NCBI GenBank assembly: GCA_963808235.1
Contig: CAWEEQ010000002.1
Location: 1 to 64,000, forward strand
Direction of reading: 5' to 3'
DNA from: an uncultured delta proteobacterium
GTDB lineage: Bacteria; Desulfobacterota; Binatia; Binatales; Binataceae
DNA length: 64,000 nucleotides
The notes under the pieces were generated by a model. It saw only the letters and a list, made by a program, of their open reading frames with translations, searched no databases and was not told the DNA's origin. Both the position numbers and the translations under genes were made by a program. Position 1 is the stretch's first letter. The number at the start of each line of letters is the position of its first letter. Positions 1-16,381 of this stretch are shown in pieces.

Positions 1-8
1 AAAAATCA

Positions 9-270
9 ATGCTGAAACGTAAGGCTTGAGAATCCCGACTTCGTCCTCTTCACGCTCAGCGGTCATATAGACGCCGAGCATGCCGCAGAATTGCAACTGG
101 CCTTCGATGGAGAGGCTCTTCGAATCGTTTTGGATCTCCGAGAGGTGAAGCGTGTCGATCGGGAAGTGGTGGTGGATCTCGCGCGCTGGGATGGAGATAG
201 TATCAAATTCGAAAATTGCCCGGCCTACCTCCGCGAGTGGATTGCGAGGACTCAGATGGATCCTCGTTAG
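9..270 (+). pseudogene. Small STAS-like (anti-sigma antagonist-like) protein, frameshifted near the start
   Basis: ATG at 9 (MLK) is out of frame with VRLENPDFVLFTLSGHIDAEHAAEL...IVLDLREVKRVDRE...ENCPAYLREWI, which ends at TAG 268-270. One extra base near 18. Confidence 0.6.
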
Positions 271-274
271 GGGC

Positions 275-2006: not shown

Positions 2007-2303
2007 CTCGCTGAAACCTGCTCGATGATATAGCGCTCTTGAGGTGGAGGCGCGAGCGTTCCGACACCGCCAGGTGCTGCGACCTCGAAGGCGCAATTCG
2101 AGCTCGTTTGCGCATAGATCACGAAACATCGTTACTGCGCCCTACCCGCGAGGAACGACCAAAATTCGGCGGAGGTTATGCCAGCCTCCGGGAGAGTTGG
2201 ATATGCACCCACCACACCCTTCGCAAGAGTCTCAAAAGGTTCCGGCGGATTAGCCAAGCCTCGCCATGCTCTGACCTTCGCGGAAAACCGAAATCAAAAA
2301 TTG

Positions 2304-2321
2304 TGGGCAGTAATTGGGCAC
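2304..2321. repeat. Tandem TGGGCA(G/C) motifs 11 bp apart; candidate integrase arm-type sites
   Basis: TGGGCAG-TAAT-TGGGCAC, followed by AT-rich GTAAGTACCTAATAAATAA directly before the tRNA 5' end. Confidence 0.4.
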
Positions 2322-2374
2322 TCTGGCGAGCCTCGGATTGCGCGGATCGCCGTAAGTACCTAATAAATAAGGGC

Positions 2375-2470
2375 GGAGGAGGAAGGGGCCCGGTGGCCCC
2401 ACCGGTCTTCAAAACCGGCCTGGCGGCTAATATTGTCGCCGGAGGGTTCGACTCCCTCCCCCCTCCGCCA
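2375..2470 (+). tRNA. selC: tRNA-Sec (anticodon UCA)
   Basis: Anticodon arm CCGGT-CTTCAAA-ACCGG, long variable arm, T arm GAGGG-TTCGACT-CCCTC, 8-bp acceptor GGAGGAGG/CCCCCTCC (one A-C mismatch), ends GCCA; 96 nt. Confidence 0.95.
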
Positions 2471-2481
2471 AGTGCGGTCGC

Positions 2482-2550
2482 TGTACGGGGACTGTTGATC
2501 TGATCATCGGGGCAATTTTCCGGGACTAGGCGGGACTAGCCGGGACCAGG
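2482..2550 (+). repeat. Left end: terminal inverted repeat plus three 10-bp direct repeats
   Basis: TG end at 2482; CGGGACTAGG CGGGACTAGC CGGGACCAGG at 2521-2550. Confidence 0.8.
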
Positions 2551-2722
2551 GCGGACGGGCGGTTCAGAAACATCGCGGCGCGGCGCGGCTTTAAGGGCAT
2601 AGGCGATTTTCGGCGGGAGGTTTCCGCGTAGTCGAGACCGGGTTTGCGGCTTGTCCCGGCAATCGCATACATCACGGTCGCAGCGATTTGTTTGCGCGCG
2701 GCTACGCGTGCTCTGTGTCGCG

Positions 2723-2757
2723 ACGCTGAAAGCACGCTGAAAGTATGATCGTTTCAA
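2723..2757 (+). repeat. Subterminal motifs: ACGCTGAAAG x2 and ATGATC-N3-TCAA
   Basis: ACGCTGAAAG at 2723 and 2734. ATGATCGTTTCAA at 2745-2757 matches the motif at 2495-2507 (minus strand) and 16191-16203. Confidence 0.5.
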
Positions 2758-2838
2758 TGTCCGAGAAGTGAAACAGATTTGCCTTGAGACCGACGTTGTT
2801 GAGGATGGCGATCGCTATTTCGACGATTCCCATCTCGT

Positions 2839-3603
2839 TCACGGAATGGCGCTACCCTTCCAGATCACGCGGCCGAGAATCCCGAACATACTATCTTCAT
2901 CAGACGTGATCGCGACCAAATCAGGCCCGATTATGTTTTTGCGTTTCGTGCGGCGGACCGTCTGACCCGGCATCGATTCGAAGTCTCGATTATCGCAAAG
3001 CAGCCGGAACTTTCCGCTGCCTTCAGCCCGAATGCGGCGGACTAGAATCGAAGGGATGCCCGACGACGATATTTCACTTCCGCCCGCGATGGGTGTCATG
3101 AGTGCCCACACGCCATCGCGGAGATCGCGGTCGCTCGTATTGATCAGAATGAGATCGCCGCTTTCAATATACGGCGCCATCGCATCGCCGGCGGCTTCGG
3201 TGAGAAGAAGCGCCTCGGCGATTGGCGATCCGGGCAAGGATCGAATCCAGTCTTTTTTTAGTGCGAGATAATCGACGCCCTGGTACTCGATTTCGCTATC
3301 GCTCTTGTAGCGGCGAACCAAGGCGTATCCTTCGGGTAGAAGATCCGCGGCCATCGGACCGCGGCCTGCGGCGAGCCATTCGATACTGACGTCGGCGGCA
3401 GTCGCCAACTTAACCAATTTCTCTCGACTCGGTTCGGAGCCGCGAAGCCACAAGTGAACCGAGCTGTCCGACACGCCCGCGGCCTGAGCCAGTGCGAGAA
3501 CGCTTCCGGCGCGATCAATCAGAATCCTAAGTCGATCGGCAAATGACTTCGCGGAGCTGCCGCCGACCGTCGAGTGCGATAGTCTGCTAACTCTCCGAGT
3601 CAT
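2839..3603 (-). CDS. Phage repressor (XRE HTH + degenerate S24 domain)
   Basis: FADRLRILI...LAQAAGVSDSSVHLWLRGSEPSREKLVKLA...VSIEWLAAGRGPM HTH; S24-like GDAMAPYIESGDLILIN; divergent from ner. Confidence 0.88.
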   Translation of the reverse strand: MTRRVSRLSHSTVGGSSAKSFADRLRILIDRAGSVLALAQAAGVSDSSVHLWLRGSEPSREKLVKLATAADVSIEWLAAGRGPMAADLLPEGYALVRRYKSDSEIEYQGVDYLALKKDWIRSLPGSPIAEALLLTEAAGDAMAPYIESGDLILINTSDRDLRDGVWALMTPIAGGSEISSSGIPSILVRRIRAEGSGKFRLLCDNRDFESMPGQTVRRTKRKNIIGPDLVAITSDEDSMFGILGRVIWKGSAIP

Positions 3604-3653
3604 TCTGAATATACCTTGAAATAATCCTAGTTTTATGGAACTCTAGTCACGCC

Positions 3654-3872
3654 ATGTCGCCAGAAAAGCGAACCACGAATCGTGCGAGCGCGTCAACGAA
3701 AGACTGGTCGCGTGCCGATGTGGTCGCTGCACTGTGGAATTGCGGCTGGAGCCTTCGCCGTTTATCGATCGCAAACGGGCTCAAACCCGGCACTTTATCT
3801 AACGTTCTACGGCAGAGCTGGCCAAGCGCCGAAGCGATCATCGCGAAAGCAATCGGCGTATCCCCCGACTGA
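3654..3872 (+). CDS. ner: Ner/Nlp-family DNA-binding protein
   Basis: DWSRADVVAAL...SLRRLSIANGLKPGTLSNVLRQSWPSAEAIIAKAIGVSP is the Mu Ner signature; located between repressor and transposase. Confidence 0.9.
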   Translation: MSPEKRTTNRASASTKDWSRADVVAALWNCGWSLRRLSIANGLKPGTLSNVLRQSWPSAEAIIAKAIGVSPD

Positions 3873-3927
3873 TTTGGCCAAATCGGTACGCGCAGCGCGC
3901 CGAGCGTGCGCATAGGAAGGCGCGGCG

Positions 3928-6081
3928 ATGATACTAACGGCAAAACAAATCGGCGATCGGGTGGGCCTCACGCCTCAAGCGGTCAACCGGCGCGCGCGCC
4001 TGAACAATATCGCGGTTCTCCGAACGCTCGGCAAAGGCGGCGCTAATGGGTATGACAAAACAATATCAAATGCCTTCGACGATAAGCGCCAGCGTGCGAT
4101 CGTGGCGGCGCTATTTCTCCCGGACGGCGCGGCATCTGTGGCTTCGGAGCCATCGGCAGCCGAGGTCTTCCCCGCGGATATCGAAGAGCGGCGCGCATCC
4201 TTGTGGGAGTGCTACGACCGCGCGCCGGCGAAAAAGCGCGCGCGCGCCGATCACCGCGCGGAGATCGCCCGCGCGGTTGATGACCGCGTTGAGGATCTCG
4301 GCTGGACTGGCGCGTATGCGGTCGTGGCGGCGGCGCGTGGCTTGCCGATTCCGACGGTTCGCAGATGGGCGGAAAAAGTTCGGGCCTGCGATCCGGCTGA
4401 CTATCCGGCAATGTTTTTGGACGGTTATAAAGGCTCGCAGCGGAAAACCAAATTTGACCCGATCTTCGATCGCCTTTTTCGCGAGTTTTATTTGAGACTC
4501 ACACAGCCGGCCGCGGCTGTTGCATACGAAAAAGCGATCGCCGCCGCGGCGAATATGATGCCGGGAGATCGCGGCGCAGCGGCCCCGAGTCTCAAGACGC
4601 TGCTCCGCCGATTGCGGCGTGAAGTTCATCCGGACGTCATCGTGTTCAAGCGCGAAGGCGGTGACGCGCTCGACCATAAATACCCGCACTTGCAACGCGA
4701 CCGCTCCGTCTTTCACGCAACTCAGGCCATGAACGCCGACGGGCACCGATGGGATTTTTTCGTGCGCTTGCCGGACGGTGAAGTGTGTAGGCCGATGACC
4801 GTGGCCGTACAAGATTTGTATTCAAATCTATTTCTCGCCTGGCGGACCGGCCGTAGCGAAAATCGCGATGCGGTCCGCCTCGCATTCGGCGACGCCTTTA
4901 GGATTGGGCTTCCGGAGCACATTTTTTTAGATAACGGTCGCGGCGGCATGTCCAAGTGGTTGACGGGGGGGATGACTTTCCGTTTTCGATTTAAGATTAA
5001 ACGCGAGGACCCTGTTGGTCTTTTTGAATCGCTCGGGATCAAGGTTCATGCGACGCGCCCCTATCACGGCCAAAGCAAACCGATCGAGCGCGCGTTCCGC
5101 GATCTCGAAAACCACATGCGCGCGCGGCCCGAGTTGACGGGCGCATGGTGTGGCAACCGACCTGACGCGAAACCGGAAAACTATGGCAACAAAGCCATTG
5201 CTCTCGATGTGTTCTTGCGCGTGATGGATGGCGAAATCGCCGCATACAATCGGCGGCTCAATCGGCGCACCGAAATAGCGCGCGGGCTTTCATTTCAGAA
5301 AGTTTTTGACGAATCCTACGTCAAGTCGCCGATTCGCAAGGCGACCCAGGCACAATTGCGCAAGTGCATGCTGGCCATTGAACGCGTATTTGTTTCGCCG
5401 AAAGATTCGACGATAAACTTGTTCGGCAATAGGTATTGGTCCGAAGTTACGCAGCTCAATCGCGGGCAGCATCTCGCGGCGCGTTTTGATCCCGGTAATT
5501 TGCAAAATCCCGAGGCAATTTTTCTCTACACGCTCGACGATTCGTTTATCGGCACCTGCGAAGTGCGCGATGTGGTCGGCTTCAATGATGCCGACGCGGC
5601 GCGCGATTTCCACCGGGCCAAGAAACTACACAAGCGCGGCATTCGGATGCAGGCGGAGGCGGAGCGCCGCATGGACGATGCCGAACTGCGCGGCTTGATG
5701 GTTGACGCCGCGACGCCCGAAGCCGCCGCGGCGAAAGTCGTGCGGCCGTTTCGGCCGAAGGTCGCGCCGCCACGGTTCAAGCCGCCGCTTGAGCACGCCG
5801 ATCGCGCAGAAGTTGATGCGGCCTACGAGGAGCTGATGGCCGAGCGCCGGACGCGTACGCAGTACGATGAGGCGGCCGAAGTCGCCGGGGCCATCGCTGA
5901 TTATCAGAGAATAGCAGCCATCGCGTGCGAGCAGCGGACGAAAGAAGATTCCGATTGGCTCGAATTTGCCGCGAATTTACCCGAGATCAAGCGGCTCAAG
6001 CGGGCGAAACTTGAAAAAATAAATTCTGAAAATTGGAGCGACGACGACCGGGAGTTTATGGGGATAAAAAATGCCGGCTGA
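3928..6081 (+). CDS. muA: Mu-like DDE transposase (MuA)
   Basis: N-terminal Mu-type HTH; catalytic triad ADGH / LDNG / SKPIERAF; Mu transposase C-terminal GNRYWS...ARFDP. Confidence 0.95.
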   Translation: MILTAKQIGDRVGLTPQAVNRRARLNNIAVLRTLGKGGANGYDKTISNAFDDKRQRAIVAALFLPDGAASVASEPSAAEVFPADIEERRASLWECYDRAPAKKRARADHRAEIARAVDDRVEDLGWTGAYAVVAAARGLPIPTVRRWAEKVRACDPADYPAMFLDGYKGSQRKTKFDPIFDRLFREFYLRLTQPAAAVAYEKAIAAAANMMPGDRGAAAPSLKTLLRRLRREVHPDVIVFKREGGDALDHKYPHLQRDRSVFHATQAMNADGHRWDFFVRLPDGEVCRPMTVAVQDLYSNLFLAWRTGRSENRDAVRLAFGDAFRIGLPEHIFLDNGRGGMSKWLTGGMTFRFRFKIKREDPVGLFESLGIKVHATRPYHGQSKPIERAFRDLENHMRARPELTGAWCGNRPDAKPENYGNKAIALDVFLRVMDGEIAAYNRRLNRRTEIARGLSFQKVFDESYVKSPIRKATQAQLRKCMLAIERVFVSPKDSTINLFGNRYWSEVTQLNRGQHLAARFDPGNLQNPEAIFLYTLDDSFIGTCEVRDVVGFNDADAARDFHRAKKLHKRGIRMQAEAERRMDDAELRGLMVDAATPEAAAAKVVRPFRPKVAPPRFKPPLEHADRAEVDAAYEELMAERRTRTQYDEAAEVAGAIADYQRIAAIACEQRTKEDSDWLEFAANLPEIKRLKRAKLEKINSENWSDDDREFMGIKNAG

Positions 6082-6115
6082 AGCGATAGCCCTTGACCGA
6101 TGGAGGAAACGTCCG

Positions 6116-6916
6116 ATGTCCGACGCAGCGCAACCGATGAATCGCCGCAGTGCCGAGATTATTCCGCTGCGTTCCGCCACCGCGGGCGTAGCGTTCGAAG
6201 CGCCGGAGCATGTCGTCACGCCGACTGGCCGCCGCATTTCGAAGGCGCTCGCGACCGCGCAGACTTTCGGCTTGCCGGTGCTGATTGAAGGCGTATCAGG
6301 TTGCGGGAAAACTTCCGAGCTGAATCATTACGCGGCGACGCATGAAAACGTATCGCTTACGACGATGGCGCCGCATTGCAAAAGCGTGTGGGCGTCGCTC
6401 GACGAGCTGGCCGAATCGATCGGCGTCGGAAGCCATCAGGGGCAGGCGCCGCATCGGGTCGCGCGCGAAATTATCGGGCGACTCAAGGAACGTCCGGGCG
6501 CGCTGCTCATTGTTGATGAAGTTCAGCACCTTGAGGACGCGGCGCTCGAAGAATTGCGTTGCATCCACGATCGAACGCGGATCGGCTTGGCGTTGACCGG
6601 CTCAATCATGCTGTACGGCCGCTTAGTTGGCGGCGCGCGCACCGACAAGATGGCGCAGATTCGGTCGCGGATCGCTCAGCGCCTATCGCTGAAAATGGCC
6701 GCGGAAGGCGATGTAGATGCGCTGCTCGATGCATGGCGCGTGCGCGGACCGGCGGAGCGGAGACTATTGCACGAGATAGCCAAGAAGCCCGGCACGCTGC
6801 GCGCGATGGTGAAGACGCTATCACTCGCGATCGCGGCGGCGACAGCGGACGGCCGCAAAGCGGTCGCGATTGCGGATATTCGCGAATCGTGGGCGCTGCT
6901 GGGAGGAGTGGCCTGA
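6116..6916 (+). CDS. muB: MuB-like AAA+ transposition ATPase lacking the N-terminal HTH appendage
   Basis: VTPTGRRI, Walker A GVSGCGKTS, Walker B LLIVDEVQHL, QIRSRI arginine finger, KPGTLR; GGAGG RBS before ATG 6116 (alternative start 6071). Confidence 0.92.
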   Translation: MSDAAQPMNRRSAEIIPLRSATAGVAFEAPEHVVTPTGRRISKALATAQTFGLPVLIEGVSGCGKTSELNHYAATHENVSLTTMAPHCKSVWASLDELAESIGVGSHQGQAPHRVAREIIGRLKERPGALLIVDEVQHLEDAALEELRCIHDRTRIGLALTGSIMLYGRLVGGARTDKMAQIRSRIAQRLSLKMAAEGDVDALLDAWRVRGPAERRLLHEIAKKPGTLRAMVKTLSLAIAAATADGRKAVAIADIRESWALLGGVA

Positions 6917-7276
6917 ATGTCGAAACGGATCGACATATCAGCCGATGCGCGCGCGGTGATTGAAGAGTTTTTCCTCAAGCATAATTTCTCGCGATACCGC
7001 GAGCTGTCGCGGTTGCTCCGAAAGCGCCACGGCGTGCGGGTCTGCAAAAGCACGCTTCACGAATGGGGCCAAAGCTTGCGCGATGAGTTTGAGGCCGGGC
7101 TGCGTCTCGGGGTTCGGAGGCGCGGAATCGTGGCCGGCGCCGGCCAAGGGACGCCGATGACGACCAGGGCACTGGAACGGCTGGCTGCGGAATTGTCGGA
7201 GGCGGCAGAGGCGCAGCGTTCGGTCAGAAAACGATTGATAACCAAACGCCGCGCGCGGCGGGTGAAAACGGCATGA
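6917..7276 (+). CDS. DUF3486 / Mu gp27-like protein (putative small terminase-like)
   Basis: IEEFFLKHNFSRYRELSRLLRKRHGVRVCKSTLHEWGQ resembles the DUF3486 pattern (F.GY.EL..L...G..ISKSALHRYGQ); abuts the muB stop. Family assigned by eye. Confidence 0.6.
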   Translation: MSKRIDISADARAVIEEFFLKHNFSRYRELSRLLRKRHGVRVCKSTLHEWGQSLRDEFEAGLRLGVRRRGIVAGAGQGTPMTTRALERLAAELSEAAEAQRSVRKRLITKRRARRVKTA

Positions 7277-7950
7277 CGACAATGTCCAGCGCGAAAAAAG
7301 AATTATCGAACTCCGACGAGTTGCGCGGCCGGATCGAGGCCATGCTCGTACCGCAATGGGTGAACGTCGCGGCGATCGCCTTCGCGATCCCGATGTCGAC
7401 GGAGCAGCTGATCGAATGGCTTGCCGGCAATCCGATTAAGGGCAACGTGGCGCGGTTCGAGAAAGAGATTTCCGCATACCTCGAATCACGCGCGGCCTGG
7501 CTCGCTGAAGTGAAGAACGCAGACGCGAACCGGCGGGGTGAACTGAGATTTGCCAGAGCGCGAGAAATCAGAGAGCTGAGCGAGAAACTTGCCGAGGAAC
7601 CAAATCGCACGCCGTACGCGGAAATGCTGCACGACAGCATCGTGTTCGGCTTGCACGATCTGATCTCGCTGTTCGAAGAACGTGGCGCCGGAAACTGTTG
7701 GCAATGCGGCGCGACGCACGATGCGCCGGCGGCGACCGTCGAAACTCAAATCGAAATCAATCTGAGAAACGCCGCTTGGCAGACGTGGCCGGAGGAGGTG
7801 TTCCGGGAGCGGCTGCGCGCGGCGATGGTTGACGGCGAGCGCATCATGGCAGTTAACCCCGGTCGCGTTTGGATTCGGCGGCCGGATGGCAGTGTCTACA
7901 CCGCGCTCAGGGGCGCGCCCATAAACGGGGGCGGCATCGAAGAAGCATGA
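7273..7950 (+). CDS. Protein with MuB-N-terminal-like HTH fused to an unknown CxxC-containing region
   Basis: ATGA overlap with the previous gene; DELRGRIEAML...VAAIAFAIPMSTEQLIEWLAGNPIKGNVARFEKEISAYLESR; CWQCG. Confidence 0.65.
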   Translation: MTTMSSAKKELSNSDELRGRIEAMLVPQWVNVAAIAFAIPMSTEQLIEWLAGNPIKGNVARFEKEISAYLESRAAWLAEVKNADANRRGELRFARAREIRELSEKLAEEPNRTPYAEMLHDSIVFGLHDLISLFEERGAGNCWQCGATHDAPAATVETQIEINLRNAAWQTWPEEVFRERLRAAMVDGERIMAVNPGRVWIRRPDGSVYTALRGAPINGGGIEEA

Positions 7951-7966
7951 CGATGGAATCATCAAC

Positions 7967-8596
7967 GTGCGCCGCGCGATGCGGCGCTCTCTTAACATGG
8001 CTTCGACCGGGAGGCTGAAAAAAGTGGACGACAAAACGCGACCAGATCATGACAAGGAGATCGCTCGGATCATCCGAAAGGCAGCAAGGGAAAGCGCCGC
8101 CGAAATCCAGCCGTGCACCGCTTTCGACGCGCTGGCGATGCTCGCGCCGCTGGATGCTGAACAGCTGAAACTCATCGCCGATGTATTCGCCGCGATGCGG
8201 CCGGTTGCGAAGGCGCAAAATGACAGACACGCAATTGCTAGCGATTCCGCGCGCCCGGCAGCCGGAAAAAGCGGCGGGATCAATAAGCACAAATTGGCGA
8301 TCTCGATAAGGCTGGTGCTCGAAGCGATGGTCGCAAAGAACCGCACCGCGGACCCATATTCTATCGCGGACTTTGTGGTTGATTTCTATGAGAAATGGCA
8401 GCGTGACGGGCGAGAGCCGTCGCCGAAGCAGTTCGCGGGACGAATCAAGCCTACAATCAAGCCTACGATCGCGGGGGCTGCGCCTTATGTCGCTCAGCGA
8501 CGCCGCAAGCGGCCGAGCAACGTAGTCCCGTTCAAACCGCGGGCAGTCAACAAAACGGTTGACGCTCAAGAAGGGGATCCGAAGAAAGCGTCATGA
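7967..8596 (+). CDS. Hypothetical basic protein
   Basis: 209-aa ORF co-oriented in the early operon; start may be ATG 7997; basic C-terminus RRRKRPSNVVPFKPR. Confidence 0.6.
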   Translation: MRRAMRRSLNMASTGRLKKVDDKTRPDHDKEIARIIRKAARESAAEIQPCTAFDALAMLAPLDAEQLKLIADVFAAMRPVAKAQNDRHAIASDSARPAAGKSGGINKHKLAISIRLVLEAMVAKNRTADPYSIADFVVDFYEKWQRDGREPSPKQFAGRIKPTIKPTIAGAAPYVAQRRRKRPSNVVPFKPRAVNKTVDAQEGDPKKAS

Positions 8597-8620
8597 CGAT
8601 TTCGGCCACAGAGAAAGTGC

Positions 8621-8825
8621 TCAAGATTCCTACCGGGAATCTTGATTCGCGCGTCGAGCCTCATAAATGTTCCAAGATGGAACATTTGTTTTCCCGGCGG
8701 CATGAGACAGGGCTAATGGTCGTCGCTAACGACCATTATATCCGACGCTTAGTGAACTTCAGACCCGCCAATTGGCGCAACGCCCGCGACGACGCGCGAT
8801 CAAACTTCCCGGTTGGAAGTTTGAT
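8621..8825. repeat. Array of four perfect 10-11 bp inverted repeats
   Basis: TCAAGATTCC-N5-GGAATCTTGA (8621-8645), AAATGTTCCA-N3-TGGAACATTT (8665-8687), TAATGGTCGT-N5-ACGACCATTA (8714-8738), ATCAAACTTCC-N5-GGAAGTTTGAT (8799-8825). Confidence 0.85.
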
Positions 8826-8843
8826 TCGCGCCGCGAGGGCGCA

Positions 8844-11408
8844 ATGTCACAGACACACCCAAGCCGTAAGCGACCGATAACTATTCTTGCGAGCGTGGTA
8901 TTCGCCGCCGCGATCGCGTCGGCCGCGTCCGCGCAGGCCGTCTCGCCGATCACAAATTTTGTCGGGGCGGGCGCAGGCGCGCAGTTTCGCCAGGCGATCA
9001 ACGATCGCTTGTACGGCGCGCAGCCGATCACTCCGGCATTCGGAAAAGTGGCGTTCTCCGCGCTGCCGGGCGAGGCCGACGGCGCGCTGCTGTACTGCAC
9101 AAATTGCTCGAAGACGACGCCATGCACCGTCGGCGGTCCGGGCGCGTTCGCATTTGGACAGAACGGCAACTGGAGCTGCTCGGCCGGCGCGGCCGGGTCA
9201 AGCTTCCCGTTAACAGCCGCGGTCTCCGCCGCGGGCTTCCCGATCAACGCGCAGCCGGCGGGCGTGGTCACCGGCCAATCGATTGTGTACGGGCAGGCCG
9301 CCGCAAAGTTGCAGTCCTTGACGTCGACGGCGACCGGTGTCGATTCGATCAGTAACTTTTCAGTCAATGGCGTTATCAATCTGTTGGACTATGGGGCTGA
9401 CCCCACTGGCGTGGCCGATTCATCGCCGGCGTGGACGCTCGCGATGGCCGCGGCATGTGCCGCCCAGGCGCCGCTTAGTATTCCACCCGGGACTTACAAA
9501 GCGATCAGCCAGCCGTTTCTGCATGAATGCCCGACGAGCGCGTGGAACACGCTCCCCGACATCATCGGCGCGGGCCGCGGATCGGTCACGCTAGAAAGCG
9601 GCGACGGCGCCAGCATGCTGATGCCCACGATTGTCGAAGCGTCGAACGCGCTCGTTGCTACGAATCTCGAAACGATTCCGGTTTCTCCGCTAGTTGGTTC
9701 AACGGGCCACGCAGCTAAATTCAGCGGGTTTCCAAATCTGCACATCATGCCGCTGGACTATGTGCTCGGCAGTCAGTGGGCCAATGGCGACGCGGCTTTC
9801 ACGGTGGAAGGCTTCTTCAATTCCACGAGCAACGCGGCGGCGCAAGTGATTATCTCAAGCGACGGATCTCCGACGCCAATCAAAAGCGGATGCGGCGCGA
9901 TCGGAGTGAGCAGCGATGTAGTCAGTTGCCAACGCGCGTTCACTGTCTATAAAGACAACGACGGCAAGTTGTATGCGGCGATAAAAACGAGCACGACCGG
10001 ATGGTCCGGCGTGGCAACGCTGAAAAGTGCGTCTGCGCTGACCGCGAACACAACTTATTATTTCCAGCTGTCTTACGATGGGAGCTTCGCGCGACTGTAC
10101 TATGCCACGCCCGGCTCGGCGCTCATTTCGTCCGGCAAGCAGGCGATGACCGGCACTATCGCCCAGGACAAATACGAAGACACGGTGATCGGAGCGGTGT
10201 CCGATTATTGGCATCTCGTCGCGCCCAGTCAGTACTTTGCTGGGACTCTCGACTCGATCCGAATCAGTAACACGGCGCGATGCACCGACGACTCGGGCGG
10301 ATGCACGGCGCCGAGCGCAAAGCTCGGCGGCGACGCTAACACTGTGTTTCTAGAAAACTGGAGCAACACACAGTTCGCGTCCGGATCGCCGCTGGTCTCG
10401 CCGGAATATATCAACGGCACGGCGGCCAGCGCCGGTGCGGAAGCATGGACCTTGATGCTCGACCAGGGCGACGGAAATAGCGAAGGCTTCAATCCTCATC
10501 TTCACGATTTCTCGATCCTGGGAAATTCCGCGGGCATCGTTGCCGATTCCGTCTCTCCGTTCATCGACGATGTCGGCGTAGATGTAAACGGCCCGTTCGG
10601 GATCGACCTGGCAGTGATAGAGGACTACAACGACGTGTTGCGTAAAGTCTACATCACGGCAAACACGCTCGACCTGAAGGCGGCGGGGCTCACGCAGATC
10701 AGCGATTCGTTCTTCGTGTACGCCGGCGCCGGAATCGAAACCAGCGGCGAGAAAATGTCCGGCCTTTACTTCCTTCCGGCGTCGGCCGCGAAGTTCGGCG
10801 TGATCTGCAATGGCTTTTGCTCGGTGAGCGATTCCACAGTCGATAACGAGAACGGCAGCACCGGCGGCGTCAATATTCAGCTCTCGAATATGGCGCAAGC
10901 CTCACAAATGGTTCTGGAAGTATCGAACACTTCGCTGGTAAGTGACCCGAGCCAGCCGGTGATTGCGATCGATGGCAATGCGGCGAACCCTGCGAATCAA
11001 ATCAGCCTTGAAGATGTGCAGCTATCTCATGCGGGCGGCACCGGCCCGTACGTAGCGAGCGGCACGATGAACGGAAGCATGAGTGAAGCTGTTCTTTTCA
11101 AGAACCCAGCCTTTGTTGGGACTGGCGGCCCAATTCCAGCCAGCGGCGACAGCTACGTCAGCAGCGGCACTTTCGGGGCCGGAACCCTGATTCCATATTG
11201 TGTAGAGAGCGGGATAGGAAGTACCTGCTTTACAAAAGTAGGCGGCCTGGCGGCTTGCACGGGCGGCCCTATCGACCATCAGCACATGACGGTGACAGAC
11301 GCTAACGCCGGTTGTAGCGCAGGTACGACAGCGGCCGGCGGCGGAACAACCTATTGCGATGAATACTGCGCGGGGGCTTCTACCGCGTGGAAGGAGACAG
11401 GAAACTAA
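8844..11408 (+). CDS. Signal-peptide-bearing tailspike-like protein (pectin-lyase-like beta-helix with inserted LamG/concanavalin domain)
   Basis: Sec signal (KRPITILASVVFAAAIASAASA|Q); INLLDYGADPTGVADSSPAW...IPPGTY beta-helix entry; LamG FTVEGFF...YFQLSYDGS...FAGTLDSIRISNTAR; Cys-rich terminal modules. Confidence 0.8.
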   Translation: MSQTHPSRKRPITILASVVFAAAIASAASAQAVSPITNFVGAGAGAQFRQAINDRLYGAQPITPAFGKVAFSALPGEADGALLYCTNCSKTTPCTVGGPGAFAFGQNGNWSCSAGAAGSSFPLTAAVSAAGFPINAQPAGVVTGQSIVYGQAAAKLQSLTSTATGVDSISNFSVNGVINLLDYGADPTGVADSSPAWTLAMAAACAAQAPLSIPPGTYKAISQPFLHECPTSAWNTLPDIIGAGRGSVTLESGDGASMLMPTIVEASNALVATNLETIPVSPLVGSTGHAAKFSGFPNLHIMPLDYVLGSQWANGDAAFTVEGFFNSTSNAAAQVIISSDGSPTPIKSGCGAIGVSSDVVSCQRAFTVYKDNDGKLYAAIKTSTTGWSGVATLKSASALTANTTYYFQLSYDGSFARLYYATPGSALISSGKQAMTGTIAQDKYEDTVIGAVSDYWHLVAPSQYFAGTLDSIRISNTARCTDDSGGCTAPSAKLGGDANTVFLENWSNTQFASGSPLVSPEYINGTAASAGAEAWTLMLDQGDGNSEGFNPHLHDFSILGNSAGIVADSVSPFIDDVGVDVNGPFGIDLAVIEDYNDVLRKVYITANTLDLKAAGLTQISDSFFVYAGAGIETSGEKMSGLYFLPASAAKFGVICNGFCSVSDSTVDNENGSTGGVNIQLSNMAQASQMVLEVSNTSLVSDPSQPVIAIDGNAANPANQISLEDVQLSHAGGTGPYVASGTMNGSMSEAVLFKNPAFVGTGGPIPASGDSYVSSGTFGAGTLIPYCVESGIGSTCFTKVGGLAACTGGPIDHQHMTVTDANAGCSAGTTAAGGGTTYCDEYCAGASTAWKETGN

Positions 11409-11410
11409 AA

Positions 11411-12022
11411 ATGGAATCACAAATAAATGTCCTGAACGCGAGCGACGTGGCGCAGAGAACGTCCGGCGAGATTCGGCTTGCGAAGGCGGCCGAGACCGCG
11501 ATCGAGAAGGTCATGAGCGCGAGCCCGCAGAAGCGCGCCGCGAAAATAGTTGAATGGGCCGCCGCGTACCAGTGCGCGAGCGATGAAGCGCGGATCACCG
11601 TCGCGAATCATATCGTCGCCTTTGGGCGCGATGCGTTTGAGTTTATCGAGCGCTGCGACTTCGGCGGCTTGAATAGCCTGATCAGCGCGTTCGCTTCGAA
11701 CGTGAGAACGTACGCGGAAATCCCGCCGGCGGCGCCGCCGCTAATGATGCCAGAGATCGGCGGTGACGTTTTCCGTTCGTTCGGATGGTCGATGAAAGAA
11801 CAAGACTCGTTGCAAACGGTGCTGCTCACTCCATCGCTCGGCGTGAAGCGAGGCGATCGCGTAGTCGAGATCGACGAGCACGGCGTGCGATTGGCGAGCG
11901 GACTGAAATTCACGCGCGCGCAACTCTTTGCGGCGGGCAACCACTCGAAGGAAGGAGACAGTGGCGGCGGCCACGTTCCGACGGCGCCGGGACGAACCGG
12001 GATTAGGGAGGTAAGAAGATGA
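11411..12022 (+). CDS. Hypothetical protein
   Basis: ATG 2 bp after the previous stop; ATGA overlap with the next gene. Confidence 0.7.
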   Translation: MESQINVLNASDVAQRTSGEIRLAKAAETAIEKVMSASPQKRAAKIVEWAAAYQCASDEARITVANHIVAFGRDAFEFIERCDFGGLNSLISAFASNVRTYAEIPPAAPPLMMPEIGGDVFRSFGWSMKEQDSLQTVLLTPSLGVKRGDRVVEIDEHGVRLASGLKFTRAQLFAAGNHSKEGDSGGGHVPTAPGRTGIREVRR

Positions 12023-12492
12023 ACCTGGTTGCGACGCCATCGGCGATGAACACGAAGCGGATGCAGCATAGCGCCGTGCAGCTCGGCGGCGGCGGCCTGA
12101 TTCTAATCGTTGGCGGTCTCGATCAGAACGGCAACCCGCTCGCGAGCGCGGAGCTGTTCGATCCCGCGACGGGCGTCTTCACGACGATCGCCGGGGCGCT
12201 CAATGTCGCTCGATATAATCACGCGGCGATCGTGACGAGCGGCGGAGCTGTATTCATCATTGGCGGCCAAGGCGCCGGCGCGGCGTTTCTGGCGAGTGTC
12301 GAAGTGTTCACGCCTGGTGCGGGACGCCCGGAAGTCACAGGCACGTTCGTAACGGCTGCAAGTGGCCTTTCAGCGGCCCGCGCGAGCATTGCCGCCCGAC
12401 TTCTCGTCGATGGCCGGATCCTGGTGACTGGCGGCGCCGACAGCGGCGACGCGGCGCTGAATGTCGCGGAGATTTACTCGCCCGGAATTTGA
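12019..12492 (+). CDS. Kelch-repeat protein (three blades)
   Basis: Three repeats of R..H.A..L..G.ILI.GG...LASAE.F.P; strong GGAGG RBS. Confidence 0.85.
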   Translation: MNLVATPSAMNTKRMQHSAVQLGGGGLILIVGGLDQNGNPLASAELFDPATGVFTTIAGALNVARYNHAAIVTSGGAVFIIGGQGAGAAFLASVEVFTPGAGRPEVTGTFVTAASGLSAARASIAARLLVDGRILVTGGADSGDAALNVAEIYSPGI

Positions 12493-12526
12493 AACAAGCG
12501 CCCGAAATGGAGATGAGCGGCCAAAC

Positions 12527-12868
12527 ATGAAACATACAATGACCCCGGATCAAGTGCGGCTTCTAGGCGGCCCGGAACGGCTAGCAGCCATTCACCGGCA
12601 AATTGCGAGCGAGGGTACCGCTGTGATGTCCTCCATGCACACGACACCCGCTAAGTCTGGCGTGTACGACGATGACGACGAAAATCTCAACGAGGACTCG
12701 TCGCCGGGTGAGTTCGTAACGGCCGCGCAAAGACACCTGAAAAAATATCTCGCGGCGCCGGATGCCGATGACGCCGACAATCGGATCGGGTTGGCGAGTG
12801 CCTATCTATCCACGGCGCTCGCCAAACGCGCTCGCACAAGCCAACAGGCGCGTGCGCGCCGCTGGTAA
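12527..12868 (+). CDS. Hypothetical protein with acidic patch
   Basis: ORF in operon orientation, GGAG upstream; YDDDDENLNEDS. Confidence 0.6.
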   Translation: MKHTMTPDQVRLLGGPERLAAIHRQIASEGTAVMSSMHTTPAKSGVYDDDDENLNEDSSPGEFVTAAQRHLKKYLAAPDADDADNRIGLASAYLSTALAKRARTSQQARARRW

Positions 12869-12874
12869 AGTAGA

Positions 12875-12959
12875 TGGCCGGGAATGTTGACTAGTCCTCG
12901 GCCCGGCGGGAATTGCCCTGCCGGCGGCTCGCACTGGCAGTGCGGCCGGTTCCCGGCCA
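12875..12959 (+). ncRNA. Putative multi-branched structured RNA / cis-element
   Basis: Closing stem TGGCCGGGAA/TTCCCGGCCA encloses two GC-rich hairpins in an intergenic gap. Confidence 0.35.
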
Positions 12960-12975
12960 GTCCGGTTGACGCCGG

Positions 12976-13173
12976 ATGACGGGGTTCTCCGTATGTCCGA
13001 GGTGTGGAAGAAGGTTTTTGTTGGCTGTCGATGTTTGCGACTTTTGCCGCGACAGCGCGGTTCCGGGCGGCCGAAAGCTGATGGTTCGATTGTGGAATGT
13101 AACTCGATCGCGCTTTGGCATGGTCTATCACGGCCCAGGGGCGCTGAATCGGCACACTAGGATGGGAAAATGA
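12976..13173 (+). CDS. Small zinc-ribbon protein
   Basis: CPRC-x10-CDFC; stop overlaps the next start (ATGA at 13170-13173). Confidence 0.5.
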   Translation: MTGFSVCPRCGRRFLLAVDVCDFCRDSAVPGGRKLMVRLWNVTRSRFGMVYHGPGALNRHTRMGK

Positions 13174-13460
13174 AGCGCAATATCCACGTCGATGCGGCCT
13201 GCGCGCGCATTATCTCCATACGCCGGGAGCAAATCGTTTTGCTCACGCGATCGTTGGATCGCATGAAGCGGATCGCGCGGCTTCCGTTCGCTGAGGCGGA
13301 CGATACGAAGCTTGCGGCTACATTGAACGCGCTGGCAAACGCGCTCGATTTGAACTCGTTGACCCAGATGAAAACAAACGAGGAATCCGATCGCGATCTG
13401 GAGAAGAAGGCCCGCGAAATCTCCGCGAAGTCCGTCAAGTCGGCCGCGACCAGGAACTAG
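13170..13460 (+). CDS. Hypothetical helical protein directly upstream of the tape measure
   Basis: 96-aa ORF ending 6 bp before the TMP start; occupies the tail-assembly-chaperone position but no family recognised. Confidence 0.6.
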   Translation: MKRNIHVDAACARIISIRREQIVLLTRSLDRMKRIARLPFAEADDTKLAATLNALANALDLNSLTQMKTNEESDRDLEKKAREISAKSVKSAATRN

Positions 13461-13466
13461 GCGGGA

Positions 13467-15425
13467 ATGGCTTCTATCCGCGACTTCGTTTTCGGCTTCC
13501 GGCTCGAGGTGATCGATCACCTGAGCGGTGTGCTGAAAAACGTCGAGACGCGAATCGAGGGAATCAACGCGGCGGCGGCGAGAGGGTCGCATCTGCGCGA
13601 AGCGTCGGCGACGCTCGGCAAGATAGGTCTCGCCGGAATCGCGGCCGGCGGCGGCCTCGCGTATGGGCTCGGAAAGATCACCGAGTCGGCGATGAAGGGC
13701 GACGACGCAACTCGCCACATGATGACCGCGTTCGACCTCAGCGTCCCGGCCGCACAGCAGACTAAACACCTCGCCGAAACGCTCAAGATGGTAAAGGAAG
13801 CATCGCAGGCGACGGGCATGTCGCAGGATGCGCTTAAGGACTCAGTTTACAACGCAAAAATGATGATGCTGAGCGATGCAGACGCAAATGCCGTCGCGGC
13901 GGCGTCGGCGAAGCTGGCGATAGGCACTACGCACGATTTCGCGGAGGCCCAAGCCAATGTGGCGGACGTAAGCGCGATGCTCGCCACGACTCAGAACGTT
14001 CTGGGTGGCAGCGTGTCGGCCCTCTCTGACAAATTCGCACTTCTACAATCTCACTACGGTTTCGAGCGGCTCCCGGATCTAAAGGCCGCGTGGGATTACA
14101 TCCTCCCCTCGATAAAAGCCGTGAAGTTGGCCCAGGACGATGCCATGGCCGCAATGGCGGTACTCAGCACCAGTGGCTATCAAAAAGATCGAATTGGGAC
14201 CGCCATGGAGGAGGTAGTCGCCAAGATAACGACTGGGAAGGCTGCACTGCGCTCTTTAGTCGTGGCCAACAAAGAAGGTGGCCCGGATCTGGAAAAGACT
14301 AGCGAGCGCCTTGCGGGCATCACCGCCGCGATGTCTGCGCTTCAGCGTGCCAGTTATCTTAAAACCCTGGGATTCAACCTACGCGACGTGCAGGTGATGG
14401 AGACGCTGATCGATGGCGTGAAGAAGTTCCATGCGGCGCGCGCGGACCTCGCCAATAGTAAGGGCGCGACCGACGCGCTCTTCAACATACGGTCGCAAGG
14501 TGCGGACGAGAAGTGGGGGCAGCTGCAAAATAATCTCAGCATTCTGAGCGAGACGCTCGGAAACTCGCTGTTGCCGTCGGTCACCAAGGTGGTTTCAAAA
14601 CTCAACACTGCGGTTATAGCCGTAACCGAGTTTGCTGAAAGCTATAAGCCGTTCGTCAAAGTGGCCATGACGGTAGCCGCCATCAGCTCTGCTGTGCTGC
14701 TGGTCGGTGGCGGCCTGGCGCTGGCGTCGTCGGCGCTGCTGGGCTTCGTCAGCTTCGTTCCTGCGCTGAAAGAAGTGTCGGCGGCGTTCAAGCTCGGCGC
14801 GGCGGTGACCAAGATCTGGACGGCCGCGCAATGGGCGCTCGACGCGGCGATGGCCGTGGGCGTGGCTCCCATCGTGCTCACGATCGCCGCGGTCGCCGCC
14901 CTGGGAGTAGCGATTTACGAAGTCTACAAGCACTGGGCGGCGATCAAGAACTTCGGAAAAGAAATGTACGACGCCGGCATGAATATCGTGAAAGCGATTG
15001 GCTCTGGAATCGCGGCGGGCGCGATGTATCCGGTCCATGCGATTGAACACGCCTTGTCGTTAGTTCGCGCGCATCTACCGTTCTCACCGGCGAAGATTGG
15101 ACCGTTGCGTGATCTGAATCGCGTGCGAATCGTCGAGACGATCGCCGACTCGATGAAGCCCGCGGCGATGGTGACTTCAATGCGCCGCGTCGCGGCCATA
15201 GTCGCGTTCTCGGCGCCGATGATGGCTACGCCGGCTTTCGCCGGCGGCTTTGCCAGAGCGTCTGCCGGCGGCGGATCTTCGATTGTAATCAACATCACGC
15301 AGAACATCACGATCAAGCCGGGCGCCGACGCGGGCGAAGTTCTTGCGGTGATGCGGGCTTCAGGCCGCGAGCTGGCGGATACACTCAGGCGCGAAATGGA
15401 ACATGATGAAAGGCGACACTACTGA
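13467..15425 (+). CDS. Phage tail tape measure protein (652 aa)
   Basis: N-terminal LEVIDHLSG, Ala-rich helical core with QLQNNLSILSETLGNSLLPSV, hydrophobic segments (IWTAAQWALDAAM), C-terminal HLPFSPAKIGPLRDL...INITQNITI. Confidence 0.9.
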   Translation: MASIRDFVFGFRLEVIDHLSGVLKNVETRIEGINAAAARGSHLREASATLGKIGLAGIAAGGGLAYGLGKITESAMKGDDATRHMMTAFDLSVPAAQQTKHLAETLKMVKEASQATGMSQDALKDSVYNAKMMMLSDADANAVAAASAKLAIGTTHDFAEAQANVADVSAMLATTQNVLGGSVSALSDKFALLQSHYGFERLPDLKAAWDYILPSIKAVKLAQDDAMAAMAVLSTSGYQKDRIGTAMEEVVAKITTGKAALRSLVVANKEGGPDLEKTSERLAGITAAMSALQRASYLKTLGFNLRDVQVMETLIDGVKKFHAARADLANSKGATDALFNIRSQGADEKWGQLQNNLSILSETLGNSLLPSVTKVVSKLNTAVIAVTEFAESYKPFVKVAMTVAAISSAVLLVGGGLALASSALLGFVSFVPALKEVSAAFKLGAAVTKIWTAAQWALDAAMAVGVAPIVLTIAAVAALGVAIYEVYKHWAAIKNFGKEMYDAGMNIVKAIGSGIAAGAMYPVHAIEHALSLVRAHLPFSPAKIGPLRDLNRVRIVETIADSMKPAAMVTSMRRVAAIVAFSAPMMATPAFAGGFARASAGGGSSIVINITQNITIKPGADAGEVLAVMRASGRELADTLRREMEHDERRHY

Positions 15426-15720
15426 GAAAAAGGCTCGTCGTACGCAAACTGGAATCGCCGGCGAAGGTCTCGCGCGGGCGATTCGGGAGTACGGCCGCGG
15501 CCATAAGCTTGAGCTTAATGCGGCTTCCGAAGAGGTGCTCGAAAGGCTAGCCGCGACATTCAACGATATCGGCCTTCTCCCACTAGAAGGCGATTACGAC
15601 GTGCTCGTAGCGCGCGGGCTACGGGCTATTGCCGATGAGTTTCGTCAGGCCAACTTGAGGCCAGAAGTTATCGACGCTATGCGAGAGCTGCTGGCCGAGA
15701 TTCGCGAGGCAGGCGTGTGA
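15406..15720 (+). CDS. Hypothetical protein
   Basis: Overlaps the TMP end; about 104 aa, protein-like composition. Confidence 0.6.
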   Translation: MKGDTTEKKARRTQTGIAGEGLARAIREYGRGHKLELNAASEEVLERLAATFNDIGLLPLEGDYDVLVARGLRAIADEFRQANLRPEVIDAMRELLAEIREAGV

Positions 15721-15768
15721 GCACAAGCGTTGAGGCGCACCGCGCTCGGGGCTACACTCAACACTCGC

Positions 15769-16182
15769 ATGCGGATCGAAGCGAAATTAAAGAAATATCC
15801 AGGGCCGACGGAGCGCGGTTCCGTCGTGTGGGATTCAGAGACGGGCGAGCTGGCCGGCAGTCTCGCCGCGGAGATCGCCGAGGCTGCGCACGAGGCCGAC
15901 GCTCGCGGATGGGTTCCGGTCGGTCCGATGTTCTCCTACGAATTGCCGGTTAAGGATGTTCTACACACGCCGGCAGAGTTCGCGGCCGTCCTGTACTATC
16001 TCGGCTACGATGAACTGCCGCGCGAGCTGGCCGGCGAGTTTAGTTGTGAGCCTCCCGATTCAGACGACGGGTGCGATCTGCTTCCGGTATCTGAAATGCC
16101 GGCGCTGCTTGAATCGGATGCGGAATTTCTGCGCAGCCGCGGCATCCGCGTTTCGCCCAACCGTAAGATAATTCCCGGCTAA
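15769..16182 (+). CDS. Hypothetical acidic protein, last gene of the element
   Basis: MRIEAKLKKYPGPTERGSVVWDSETGELAG...; start uncertain (15730-15769). Confidence 0.6.
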   Translation: MRIEAKLKKYPGPTERGSVVWDSETGELAGSLAAEIAEAAHEADARGWVPVGPMFSYELPVKDVLHTPAEFAAVLYYLGYDELPRELAGEFSCEPPDSDDGCDLLPVSEMPALLESDAEFLRSRGIRVSPNRKIIPG

Positions 16183-16190
16183 GCCGAGAA

Positions 16191-16306
16191 ATGATCACAT
16201 CAAGCGATCAGGCGTCGGCGCACGAAAACAGCTTAAAAGTAGTCTGGCGGCGCGCCGGTGATCACCATCAACTGTCTCGCATGATCATTCCTAGTGTCCG
16301 GGTACA
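16191..16306 (-). repeat. Right end: terminal inverted repeat and internal TGATCA-containing sites
   Basis: ATGATCACATCAA (16191), GTGATCACCATCAA (16259), ATGATCATTCC (16281); ends GTACA at 16306, followed by GTCGC. Confidence 0.8.
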
Positions 16307-16381
16307 GTCGCGCAGCAAATTTCCTGATAGCATAGAGATATGGCGTTTTGTGATCGTAGTTTCAGAGATCGAGACGGAATC

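Follow-up and report, generated by a model that had tools for sequence, protein, structure and literature searches.

A compact Mu-type transposon family that seems to insert preferentially beside Ser and Sec tRNA genes

Phage Mu is the textbook transposon that inserts almost anywhere, and a complete Mu-like transposable phage has a genome of ~35-40 kb with head, portal, terminase, tail and lysis modules. Published accounts describe Mu as attaching to non-specific target DNA (PMC3362531, PMC11292022), and one of them presents its ATPase MuB as a non-specific DNA binder with an N-terminal domain of unsettled role (PMC11292022). Among Tn7-like elements, the type I-D CRISPR-associated transposon (CAST) of Cyanothece is described as homing, in a TnsD-dependent manner, to a position 30-33 nt downstream of a tRNA-Leu gene, which sets a precedent for insertion at such offsets (Faure et al. 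2023, PMC10293859). Here we analyse a stretch of 64,000 nt (herein referred to as the window; GenBank assembly GCA_963808235.1, contig CAWEEQ010000002.1) from an uncultured delta proteobacterium of the Binataceae, in which a Mu-type transposon lies 11 nt past the gene for tRNA-Sec. This element belongs to a compact transposon family that seems to insert in a biased, orientation-specific manner beside Ser and Sec tRNA genes; our literature search, which covered articles without their supplements, found no description of Mu-type elements homing to tRNA genes or of such compact natural Mu-like transposons.

Anatomy and family of the element

The genome (G000) comprises 4 contigs and 4.59 Mb, and the window forms the beginning of its contig C2. 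The target landmark is tRNA-Sec (selC, anticodon TCA; 2375..2470, plus strand), which ARAGORN identifies as the sole tRNA gene in the window and the sole tRNA-SeC among the 52 tRNAs of the four contigs, and which reads toward the left end of the element. The left junction runs ...CCTCCGCCA-AGTGCG-GTCGC-TGTACGGGGAC..., with AGTGCG directly 3' of the tRNA CCA and a spacer of 11 nt (2471-2481) between the CCA end and the first base of the element (2482), and the far junction runs ...GTCCGGGTACA (last base 16306)-GTCGC-GCAGCAA.... The two copies of GTCGC (2477..2481 and 16307..16311) form a perfect 5-bp direct repeat that agrees with the Mu target consensus N-Y-S-R-N, a consensus also quoted as 5'-CYSRG (PMC7350765). 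We scored every CA within 2.1 kb past the last large gene against the left end, counting inverted-repeat and duplication bases: the pair 2482/16306 scores 22 (17 of 25 terminal inverted-repeat bases and 5 of 5 duplication bases) against 16 for the runner-up, and both of its ends have TGTAC--GGAC in common. End pairing and gene content delimit a compact Mu-type transposon of 13,825 bp with TG..CA ends (2482..16306, plus strand). The left end (2482..2560, plus strand) consists of the terminal TGTACGGGGAC, then GATCTGATCA, then GGCAA N8 and four GGAC motifs at 10-bp spacing (2511-2555), lies within a non-coding stretch of 357 nt and is conserved in six left ends from five genomes; we presume that these repeats are MuA binding sites.

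The left part of the element encodes a phage-type control and transposition module, as judged by Pfam, PHROGs and NCBIfam profile searches of its 16 open reading frames (ORFs), nine of which have no match of any kind. A c-type repressor with a helix-turn-helix (HTH) and an S24 peptidase-like domain (2839..3603, minus strand; Phage_CI_repr 2.6e-7, HTH_3, Peptidase_S24; phrog_4 5.6e-26) is followed by an ORF for a Ner-like small HTH protein of 72 aa (3654..3872, plus strand), the counterpart of which in genome G058 matches HTH_35 at 5.1e-20. A 98-aa ORF on the opposite strand (3647-3943) is an antisense shadow of the ner-like gene, its frame being conserved in tblastn. The MuA-type DDE transposase (717 aa; 3928..6081, plus strand; DDE_2, PF02914, 1.9e-47; HTH_Tnp_Mu_2, PF09039, 1.4e-12; Mu-transpos_C, PF09299, 4e-5; phrog_310 8e-113), which is the only MuA gene in the G000 genome, is followed by a MuB-type AAA+ target-capture ATPase (281 aa; 6071..6916, plus strand; Phage-MuB_C, PF09077, 6.1e-17; AAA_22). 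The latter aligns with the solved Mu MuB (PDB 8xvb, phmmer 6.9e-37) only through its residues 43-263 on MuB 69-285, and because the alignment starts at residue 69 we conclude that the element MuB is without the four-helix HTH N-terminal domain of Mu MuB.

This organization is that of phage Mu in the following respects: MuA has DDE_2, Mu I-gamma and Mu C-terminal domains, the MuB AAA+ ATPase is encoded next to it, a c-type repressor gene diverges from a ner-A-B operon, and the TG..CA ends have imperfect terminal inverted repeats, several internal transposase-site repeats and a 5-bp duplication at N-Y-S-R-N. The MuA domains, adjacent MuB and TG..CA ends with 5-bp duplication (the last also found in G056 and G115) identify a Mu-type transposable element, and laboratory mini-Mu (ends, c, ner, A and B) is likewise among the closest known systems. 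Unlike phage Mu (~37 kb), however, elements of this family measure 12-14 kb and have one tape-measure-like gene but no recognised head or packaging genes, the MuB of the index element lacks the N-terminal domain, of which a look-alike occurs on a separate protein, and insertion in the family recurs beside Ser and Sec tRNA genes in one orientation. Nor is the element a complete Mu-like virus: at 13.8 kb, it has a single ORF among 16 in a structural family (a tape-measure-like protein), and the profile searches matched no capsid, head, portal, terminase or lysis family, although diverged versions of such genes may be among the nine ORFs that lack a match.

The element likewise has a homologous core in common with Tn7-like elements such as the Cyanothece CAST (PMC10293859), TnsB corresponding to MuA and TnsC to MuB, and inserts, as they do, in a single orientation a few tens of nucleotides downstream of a conserved gene. 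It differs from them in that TnsA and TniQ/TnsD (PF08722, PF08721, PF06527-type) find no match at E <= 0.001 in the index element or in G058, in its phage-type regulation (c, ner), in its offset of 11-43 nt, and in a transposase and ATPase that fall on the Mu side by Pfam and PDB matches; for a 225-aa protein discussed below, the one ORF product to which the fold search was applied, that search gave no TniQ match. A 5-bp target duplication is also what Tn7 makes.

Since tRNA genes are the classical attachment (att) sites of integrases, and since Tn7-like CASTs are described as homing to tRNA genes with guide RNAs (PMC10293859, PMC11406308), a site-specific recombinase acting at a tRNA-derived att site, or an element RNA pairing with the tRNA gene, has to be weighed here. 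We regard such homology- or guide-directed integration as very improbable and already largely refuted. Pfam, PHROGs and NCBIfam searches of the element found no integrase, tyrosine or serine recombinase or Cas protein; the ends are TG..CA with 5-bp duplications; and the last 19 nt of tRNA-Sec, with up to 3 mismatches allowed, occur once in the window, hence no tRNA repeat at the far end of the kind that an integrase-type tRNA island would have. Runs of exact identity between targets and elements do not exceed 10-13 nt, and shuffled targets reach as much (maximum 12-14 nt), which makes a guide or homology mechanism appear unlikely. In these respects the initial annotation of the locus stands. 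Its coordinates (CCA end at 2470, duplication at 2477-2481, element start at 2482) proved exact, being those of ARAGORN and of the top-scoring end pair (22 against 16), and its description of a Mu-type transposon agrees with the MuA and MuB families, ends and duplication. The uniqueness of the tRNA 3' 19 nt confirms its statement that no part of the tRNA is duplicated at the far end, the ends, duplications and MuA-MuB pair support its deduction of DDE transposition as opposed to integrase recombination, and the profile searches agree with its failure to recognise a TniQ.

One caveat attaches to the index locus. Contig C4 terminates (3847154-3849788) in a sequence that repeats window 1-2413 at 99.5%, departs from it within the anticodon loop of tRNA-Sec, after CTTCAAA, and continues as 220 unique bases; the assembly is therefore heterogeneous 55 nt from the tRNA-element junction. 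When window 1500-2481 was compared with the whole genome, it matched itself, this contig-end copy and one weak 66-nt segment; the tail of C4 matches none of the relatives' loci that were compared. Public reads (24 runs, best word share 0.30, of which 4 were examined) gave short low-depth contigs, none of which bridges 2481-16307 or spans the tRNA-element junction.

Relatives of the element were sought in 165 genomes of the order. MuA relatives, counted at E <= 1e-30 and with 35-44% identity, occur in 10 of the 165, seven of them in the genus of the window (G000 included); the left-end DNA pattern revealed one further left-end remnant beside these 10 MuA-bearing elements, and five more genomes with weaker MuA relatives came from 401 genomes drawn across the class. 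Scans with MuA patterns reached 5 loci in genome contigs, 3 in metagenome contigs and 9 in IMG/VR, all at 36-43% identity, and a scan of IMG/VR with the left-end DNA pattern returned only 3 unrelated tandem repeats. Members in the genus have the same gene order: repressor, ner, A, B, a homologue of 7273-7950, a homologue of 11387-12022, a Kelch protein and a tape-measure-like gene. Three elements have perfect 5-bp duplications (G000, 13,825 bp, GTCGC; G056, 12,121 bp, ATCAG; G115, 12,871 bp, CTCAT), the pentamers of which all agree with N-Y-S-R-N, and all three end a few hundred bases past the tape-measure-like gene. Because these three members combine perfect duplications with a compact size, we take the compact architecture to be conserved, and the 12-14 kb elements are a family of Mu-type transposons as opposed to decayed prophages.

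The six left ends from five genomes can be aligned from the terminal TGT, with GATCA, GGCAA and the four GGAC at 10-bp spacing in common, and this signature occurs at 6 places in 5 of the 165 genomes, the reversed pattern serving as control giving 0. The right end of the G056 element, TGTAGCCGGACTGTTGAAGTGATCA, closely resembles the left end of the G000 element; BLAST found no right-end homology between elements. By repressor (G056, 75% identity) and MuB (40-44%), the closest relatives of the G000 element are those of G056 and G018, and the MuA gene of G003 is interrupted by stop codons. The G058 element probably measures ~12.6 kb. A right end at 36428, proposed by a noisy brute-force end search and implying a 32.8-kb element, was rejected: the interval holds serine recombinase, SIR2 and HEPN genes, the end falls in the last codons of a methyltransferase gene at its junction with an adjacent glycosyltransferase gene, and comparison with the empty site of G000 shows its 10 supposed terminal bases to be host flank. 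No synteny of the G058 right flank with G000 was found.

Relaxing the left-end pattern within the genus brought up arrays of ~8 GGAY at 10-bp spacing in G008 (contig C6, L120) and G051 (contig C17, L121), at ~1490-1570 on the minus strand; the other left-end hallmarks are absent there, these genomes have no MuA and no tRNA is near, and the arrays were left out of the counts, as was a spurious match in G062.

Recurrent insertion downstream of Ser and Sec tRNA genes

Ten copies of the element can be assessed for their position, and in four of them the left end follows a class-II (Ser or Sec) tRNA gene at an offset of 11-43 nt, measured downstream from the tRNA 3' end to the element left end. The orientation is the same in all four, with the tRNA on the strand of the A-B operon and reading toward the left end. 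Besides the index copy at tRNA-Sec (+11; ARAGORN and junction sequence), these are the copies at tRNA-Ser(GGA) in G058 (+34; locus L108, where the ARAGORN tRNA and the left-end pattern are 60 nt apart), at tRNA-Ser(CGA) in G003 (+43; ARAGORN and left-end pattern) and at the truncated 3' end fragment of a tRNA-Ser on G061 contig 4 (+37; L110), the last being a 350-bp left-end remnant that is 90% identical to the other G061 copy. That other copy, on contig 5, was not assessable because the contig stops one base inside the left end, and a search of tRNA families in G061, G056, G018 and G015 did not identify its missing flank.

Two of these sites can be compared with their element-free counterparts in G000. 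The 34 nt between tRNA and element in G058 are host DNA that aligns with the element-free tRNA-Ser(GGA) trailer, ...TTCTCTGCGGGGAAAG then CGAGAAC, and the 37-nt flank on G061 contig 4 matches the tRNA-Ser(GCT) trailer up to the junction, ...CTACAATGTGGAGTGAG, where G000 continues element-free with CGGA. Upstream of the G061 fragment lies the end of another repeated element that bears a tRNA-Ser 3' end, and the tRNA body was probably displaced by a later integration. Since the four cases sit at four different tRNA genes, with flanks that match element-free G000 loci, kinship among the copies does not explain the recurrence.

We estimated the odds of such a pattern from G000 (52 tRNAs in 4.59 Mb, 7 of them Ser or Sec), leaving out the index case. 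An insertion falls within 45 nt downstream of any tRNA with p = 5e-4 if insertion is uniform and 5e-3 if 10% of the genome is permissive, and three of nine non-index copies would do so with a probability of 1e-8 or 1e-5, respectively; merging G003 and the G061 remnant into one event raises this to 7e-4 at worst. Given tRNA adjacency, that the three non-index cases are all Ser has a probability of 0.002, and that they have a common orientation one of 0.125. More distant Mu-like loci provide a control. No tRNA was found in 21 loci of more distant MuA relatives, in 11 of which the upstream sequence before the MuA match is 3.5 kb or longer and in 6 of which the flanks measure just 1.5 kb, nor within 6-7 kb upstream in any of 6 class-level MuA relatives, giving 0 of 17 adequately flanked loci (11 + 6) with a tRNA upstream.

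Targeting beside Ser and Sec tRNA genes is therefore supported statistically, with an offset that is not fixed and a preference that is not exclusive. The initial annotation had left it between chance and a new route of target selection, and had proposed that homologous elements be collected and their ends mapped. With 4 of 10 copies at Ser or Sec tRNAs and a chance probability, the index case left out, of ~1e-5 or less, the evidence supports target selection; the insertion recurs and keeps a single orientation (4 of 4), the fixed offset that it envisaged did not materialise (11, 34, 37 and 43 nt), and its refuting observation, homologues at unrelated loci, was made in part, three mapped relatives lying at loci without a tRNA.

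The empty site that it predicted in relatives (GCG-GTCGC-GCAG) was not found, all 11 tRNA-Sec loci in 10 relatives diverging right after the CCA. In these loci (L076-L086), 3-12 kb of variable DNA separate tRNA-Sec from the orthologue of ORF 16340-16990, a spacing of 39 nt in G000 once the element is subtracted, and past the variable DNA come the genes that flank the right side of the element in G000. In 9 of the 11 loci the variable DNA contains a conserved 750-aa gene, the G000 orthologue of which (~87% identity) is at C4:295171-297420.

Such variability is what one would expect if there were no targeting, with near-random Mu-like insertion and copies that persist at harmless, recombination-prone tRNA 3' flanks serving as hypervariable safe havens. 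Other mobile elements are also seen at the same tRNAs (the junction in the tRNA-Sec anticodon loop and the repeated element ending in a tRNA-Ser 3' fragment), and canonical Mu is reported to sample tRNA leader and trailer DNA (PMC7350765). Nevertheless, we judge this explanation distinctly unlikely: even a genome that is only 10% permissive leaves odds of ~1e-5 for finding three of nine copies, the index excluded, no more than 45 nt from a tRNA 3' end, the restriction to Ser and Sec and the single orientation speak further against it, the other Mu-like loci give 0 of 17, and the intactness of the index copy and its perfect duplication mark it as recent and no survivor of long sieving.

Target selection and a candidate adaptor

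The reading that we favour, and consider probable on balance, is that of an intact, compact Mu-type transposon family whose biased insertion downstream of Ser and Sec tRNA genes follows an adaptor-based, Tn7-like logic, with a second, looser mode beside it. In Tn7-type homing, the AAA+ protein is brought to one side of a conserved gene by a DNA-binding selector that sits on that gene. The elements move by Mu-type strand transfer, as their TG..CA ends and the 5-bp duplication at an N-Y-S-R-N pentamer show. A DNA-binding adaptor encoded by the element would recognise the T-arm and acceptor 3' segment that Ser and Sec tRNA genes have in common (..GGTTCGA.TCCC..CTCCGCCA; tRNA-Tyr comes nearest among other tRNAs) and would recruit the MuB ATPase on the downstream side of the tRNA gene. 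MuA would then pick a suitable pentamer downstream, so that the left end lands 11-43 nt past the tRNA 3' end; the 30-33 nt that separate the Cyanothece CAST from tRNA-Leu are close to the 34-43 nt of three family members (PMC10293859). A second, less specific mode would give rise to copies at hairpins that resemble repetitive extragenic palindromes (REPs) and in ordinary intergenic DNA.

By position and by structure, the strongest adaptor candidate is a protein of 225 aa encoded at 7273..7950 (plus strand), residues 10-75 of which are predicted from a structure model to adopt an HTH fold like that of MuB's N-terminal domain. The AlphaFold2 model, built from 10 sequences, has a mean predicted local distance difference test (pLDDT) score of 72, and of 48,161 chains compared the one that it resembles most closely is the MuB N-terminal domain (2mqk; VIA-align Z 9.2, root-mean-square deviation 1.9 Å, 65 of 65 residues, model residues 10-75); Foldseek gives the same comparison a probability of 0.98 and a TMt of 0.79, with an E of 0.5. 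Beyond these residues the model has a long helical hairpin and then a small beta-rich C-terminal domain. It is because the element MuB is without its N-terminal domain, and a separate protein has such a fold, that we propose the 225-aa protein as adaptor. Homologues occur in six sister elements, some of them away from tRNAs, and nine more (56-71% identity) in a metagenomic database; a profile search of solved structures with the family gave nothing below E 1.4, an alignment-based scan for relatives gave 0 matches, and the ESM Atlas gave no usable match for it or for 11387-12022.

Three mapped copies lie away from tRNA genes. The G056 copy lies 8 nt past a REP-like hairpin, within a cluster of such hairpins, and the copy in G018, the sole instance of its kind, sits within a REP-like hairpin of which an intact version is found at a distance of 465 nt; the G115 copy is in ordinary intergenic DNA upstream of a regulator gene. 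If the transpososome or MuB preferred extrudable hairpins, for which tRNA trailers, with their terminator-like hairpins and cruciform-prone tRNA genes, and REP-like palindromes would be the commonest intergenic places, six of the seven mapped sites could be unified: beside those of G056 and G018, the element-free G000 trailer of tRNA-Ser(GGA) has a hairpin CCGCA-TTCTC-TGCGG just before the insertion point, the tRNA-Ser(GCT) trailer has a small hairpin TGTAG-N7-CTACA, and the G000 target GTGCG-GTCG-CGCAG contains a 4-bp stem. Bendable target DNA is also described as favouring Mu transposition (PMC5357137). Such a structure-directed choice nonetheless strikes us as unlikely, since it explains neither the restriction to Ser and Sec as opposed to the other 45 tRNAs (0.002) nor the constant orientation, no hairpin is seen at the G115 site, and the hairpins were read by eye, without a background comparison.

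Several observations weigh against the favoured combination of tRNA targeting and an adaptor. Three of the seven mapped copies (G056, G018 and G115) are at non-tRNA sites, among them the two nearest relatives of the G000 element, at REP-like hairpins, and the loci in G015, G099 and G095 have no tRNA within ~8-10 kb upstream of MuA. (In G015 the left end has been replaced by a transposase gene, IS21-like as judged by eye, and G095 does have a tRNA-Met, located downstream of the MuA start at a distance of 7.6 kb.) The offset varies, from 11 nt in G000 to 34-43 nt in the other three, and the ends in G058 and G003 were placed by homology; in G058 the duplication agrees in 4 of 5 bases and the end pair scores 16 against a background of 15. 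The sample is limited in size and to a single genus, and the closest MuA relative placed in a genome is no more than 44% identical to the index MuA. No gene was found to be exclusive to the tRNA-adjacent elements among those compared, and the adaptor role, which we infer, draws on the fold predicted for a helical domain of 65 residues, for which Foldseek gives an E of 0.5. Finally, canonical Mu is reported to favour the leader and trailer DNA of pre-tRNAs over mature tRNA regions as insertion sites (PMC7350765), a preference that may have been the raw material for the tRNA bias.

A bolder version of the adaptor proposal, which we put forward tentatively and regard as doubtful, is that a Mu family independently evolved Tn7-style homing: the HTH domain of MuB would have split off (7273-7950) and would read the Ser/Sec 3' segment and nucleate MuB downstream, giving a compact, possibly satellite-like element an orientation-specific insertion at safe sites. 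Were adaptor-based targeting to be true, it would show a promiscuous MuA-MuB machine gaining site selection without TniQ, in parallel to Tn7 and its CRISPR-guided relatives, would offer a testable function for the orphan MuB N-terminal domain, and would add a compact, protein-only homing system, with ~4-5 kb of genes, to the parts for targeted DNA insertion.

Further genes and neighbouring sequences

The ORFs after MuB are closely spaced or overlapping and have weak family matches or none. The first, for a 119-aa protein with a weak HTH signal (6917..7276, plus strand), begins at the base after the MuB stop codon; its matches (IS6-transposase N-terminal HTH 1.4e-4, HTH_32 0.009, Phage_Mu_Gp27, DUF3486, 0.029) are all below curated cut-offs. 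The sub-threshold match to Mu gp27 hints at a small-terminase-like DNA binder such as a satellite might carry. Together with one tail-type gene and no recognised capsid or terminase genes, this match (E 0.029) is among the hints of a phage satellite, and capsid-less compact elements of this kind prompt one to ask if there are satellites of Mu-like phages.

All remaining ORFs are on the plus strand. The gene for the 225-aa protein is followed by two ORFs of 209 and 95 aa that lack a family match in Pfam, PHROGs and NCBIfam (7967..8880) and by that of a protein of 878 aa whose signals, lectin- and pectate-lyase-like, are weak (8772..11408; Laminin_G_3 9.7e-6, Pect-lyase 3.5e-4), a cargo that is absent from most sister elements and has a single tblastn match, in G095. 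Three conserved family genes then encode proteins of 211 aa (11387-12022), 157 aa (a Kelch-repeat protein, 12019-12492; Kelch_1 6.8e-16) and 135 aa (together 11387..12868), with homologues in G058 (Kelch protein 77% identical), G015, G056 and G003. The gene for the tape-measure-like protein (652 aa; 13467..15425; PhageMin_Tail 4.9e-10; phrog_28 1.8e-36; TIGR01760 1.3e-8) is the last large gene in all mapped family members, and two small ORFs of 105 and 150 aa, again with no match in the three profile libraries, complete the element (15403..16182).

The tRNA genes beside which the elements lie have other features of their own. Segment 2284-2416 of the window, comprising the region upstream of tRNA-Sec and the 5' half of the gene, has extra copies in G003, G004, G006, G012 and G020. 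These repeats and the C4 junction may stem from an island with an att site in the selC 5' half, or else from strain heterogeneity in the assembly; the 2.8 kb between the G003 copy of this segment and tRNA-Sec encode an HTH protein and no recognised integrase.

The repeated element at the G061 locus (contig C4, ~1600-1900, minus strand) contains several AATTCCCTG repeats and ends in the tRNA-Ser 3' fragment. Copies of its end occur five times in G003, three times in G058 and once in G056, and it probably represents another kind of mobile element directed to tRNA-Ser. Beside the G058 element, at 16.7-30 kb of the oriented locus (L073/L074), are genes for HEPN, an IrrE-like peptidase M78, SIR2-like, large serine recombinase and DUF2924 proteins, a block reminiscent of defence or integrative islands, on the downstream side of this same tRNA-Ser(GGA). 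The G000 trailers of tRNA-Ser(CGA) (C4:289806-289935) and tRNA-Ser(GCT) (C4:2059105-2059236), finally, are alike (CAG.T.G...TTCCCTACA), a likeness that points to a conserved tRNA-Ser trailer element.

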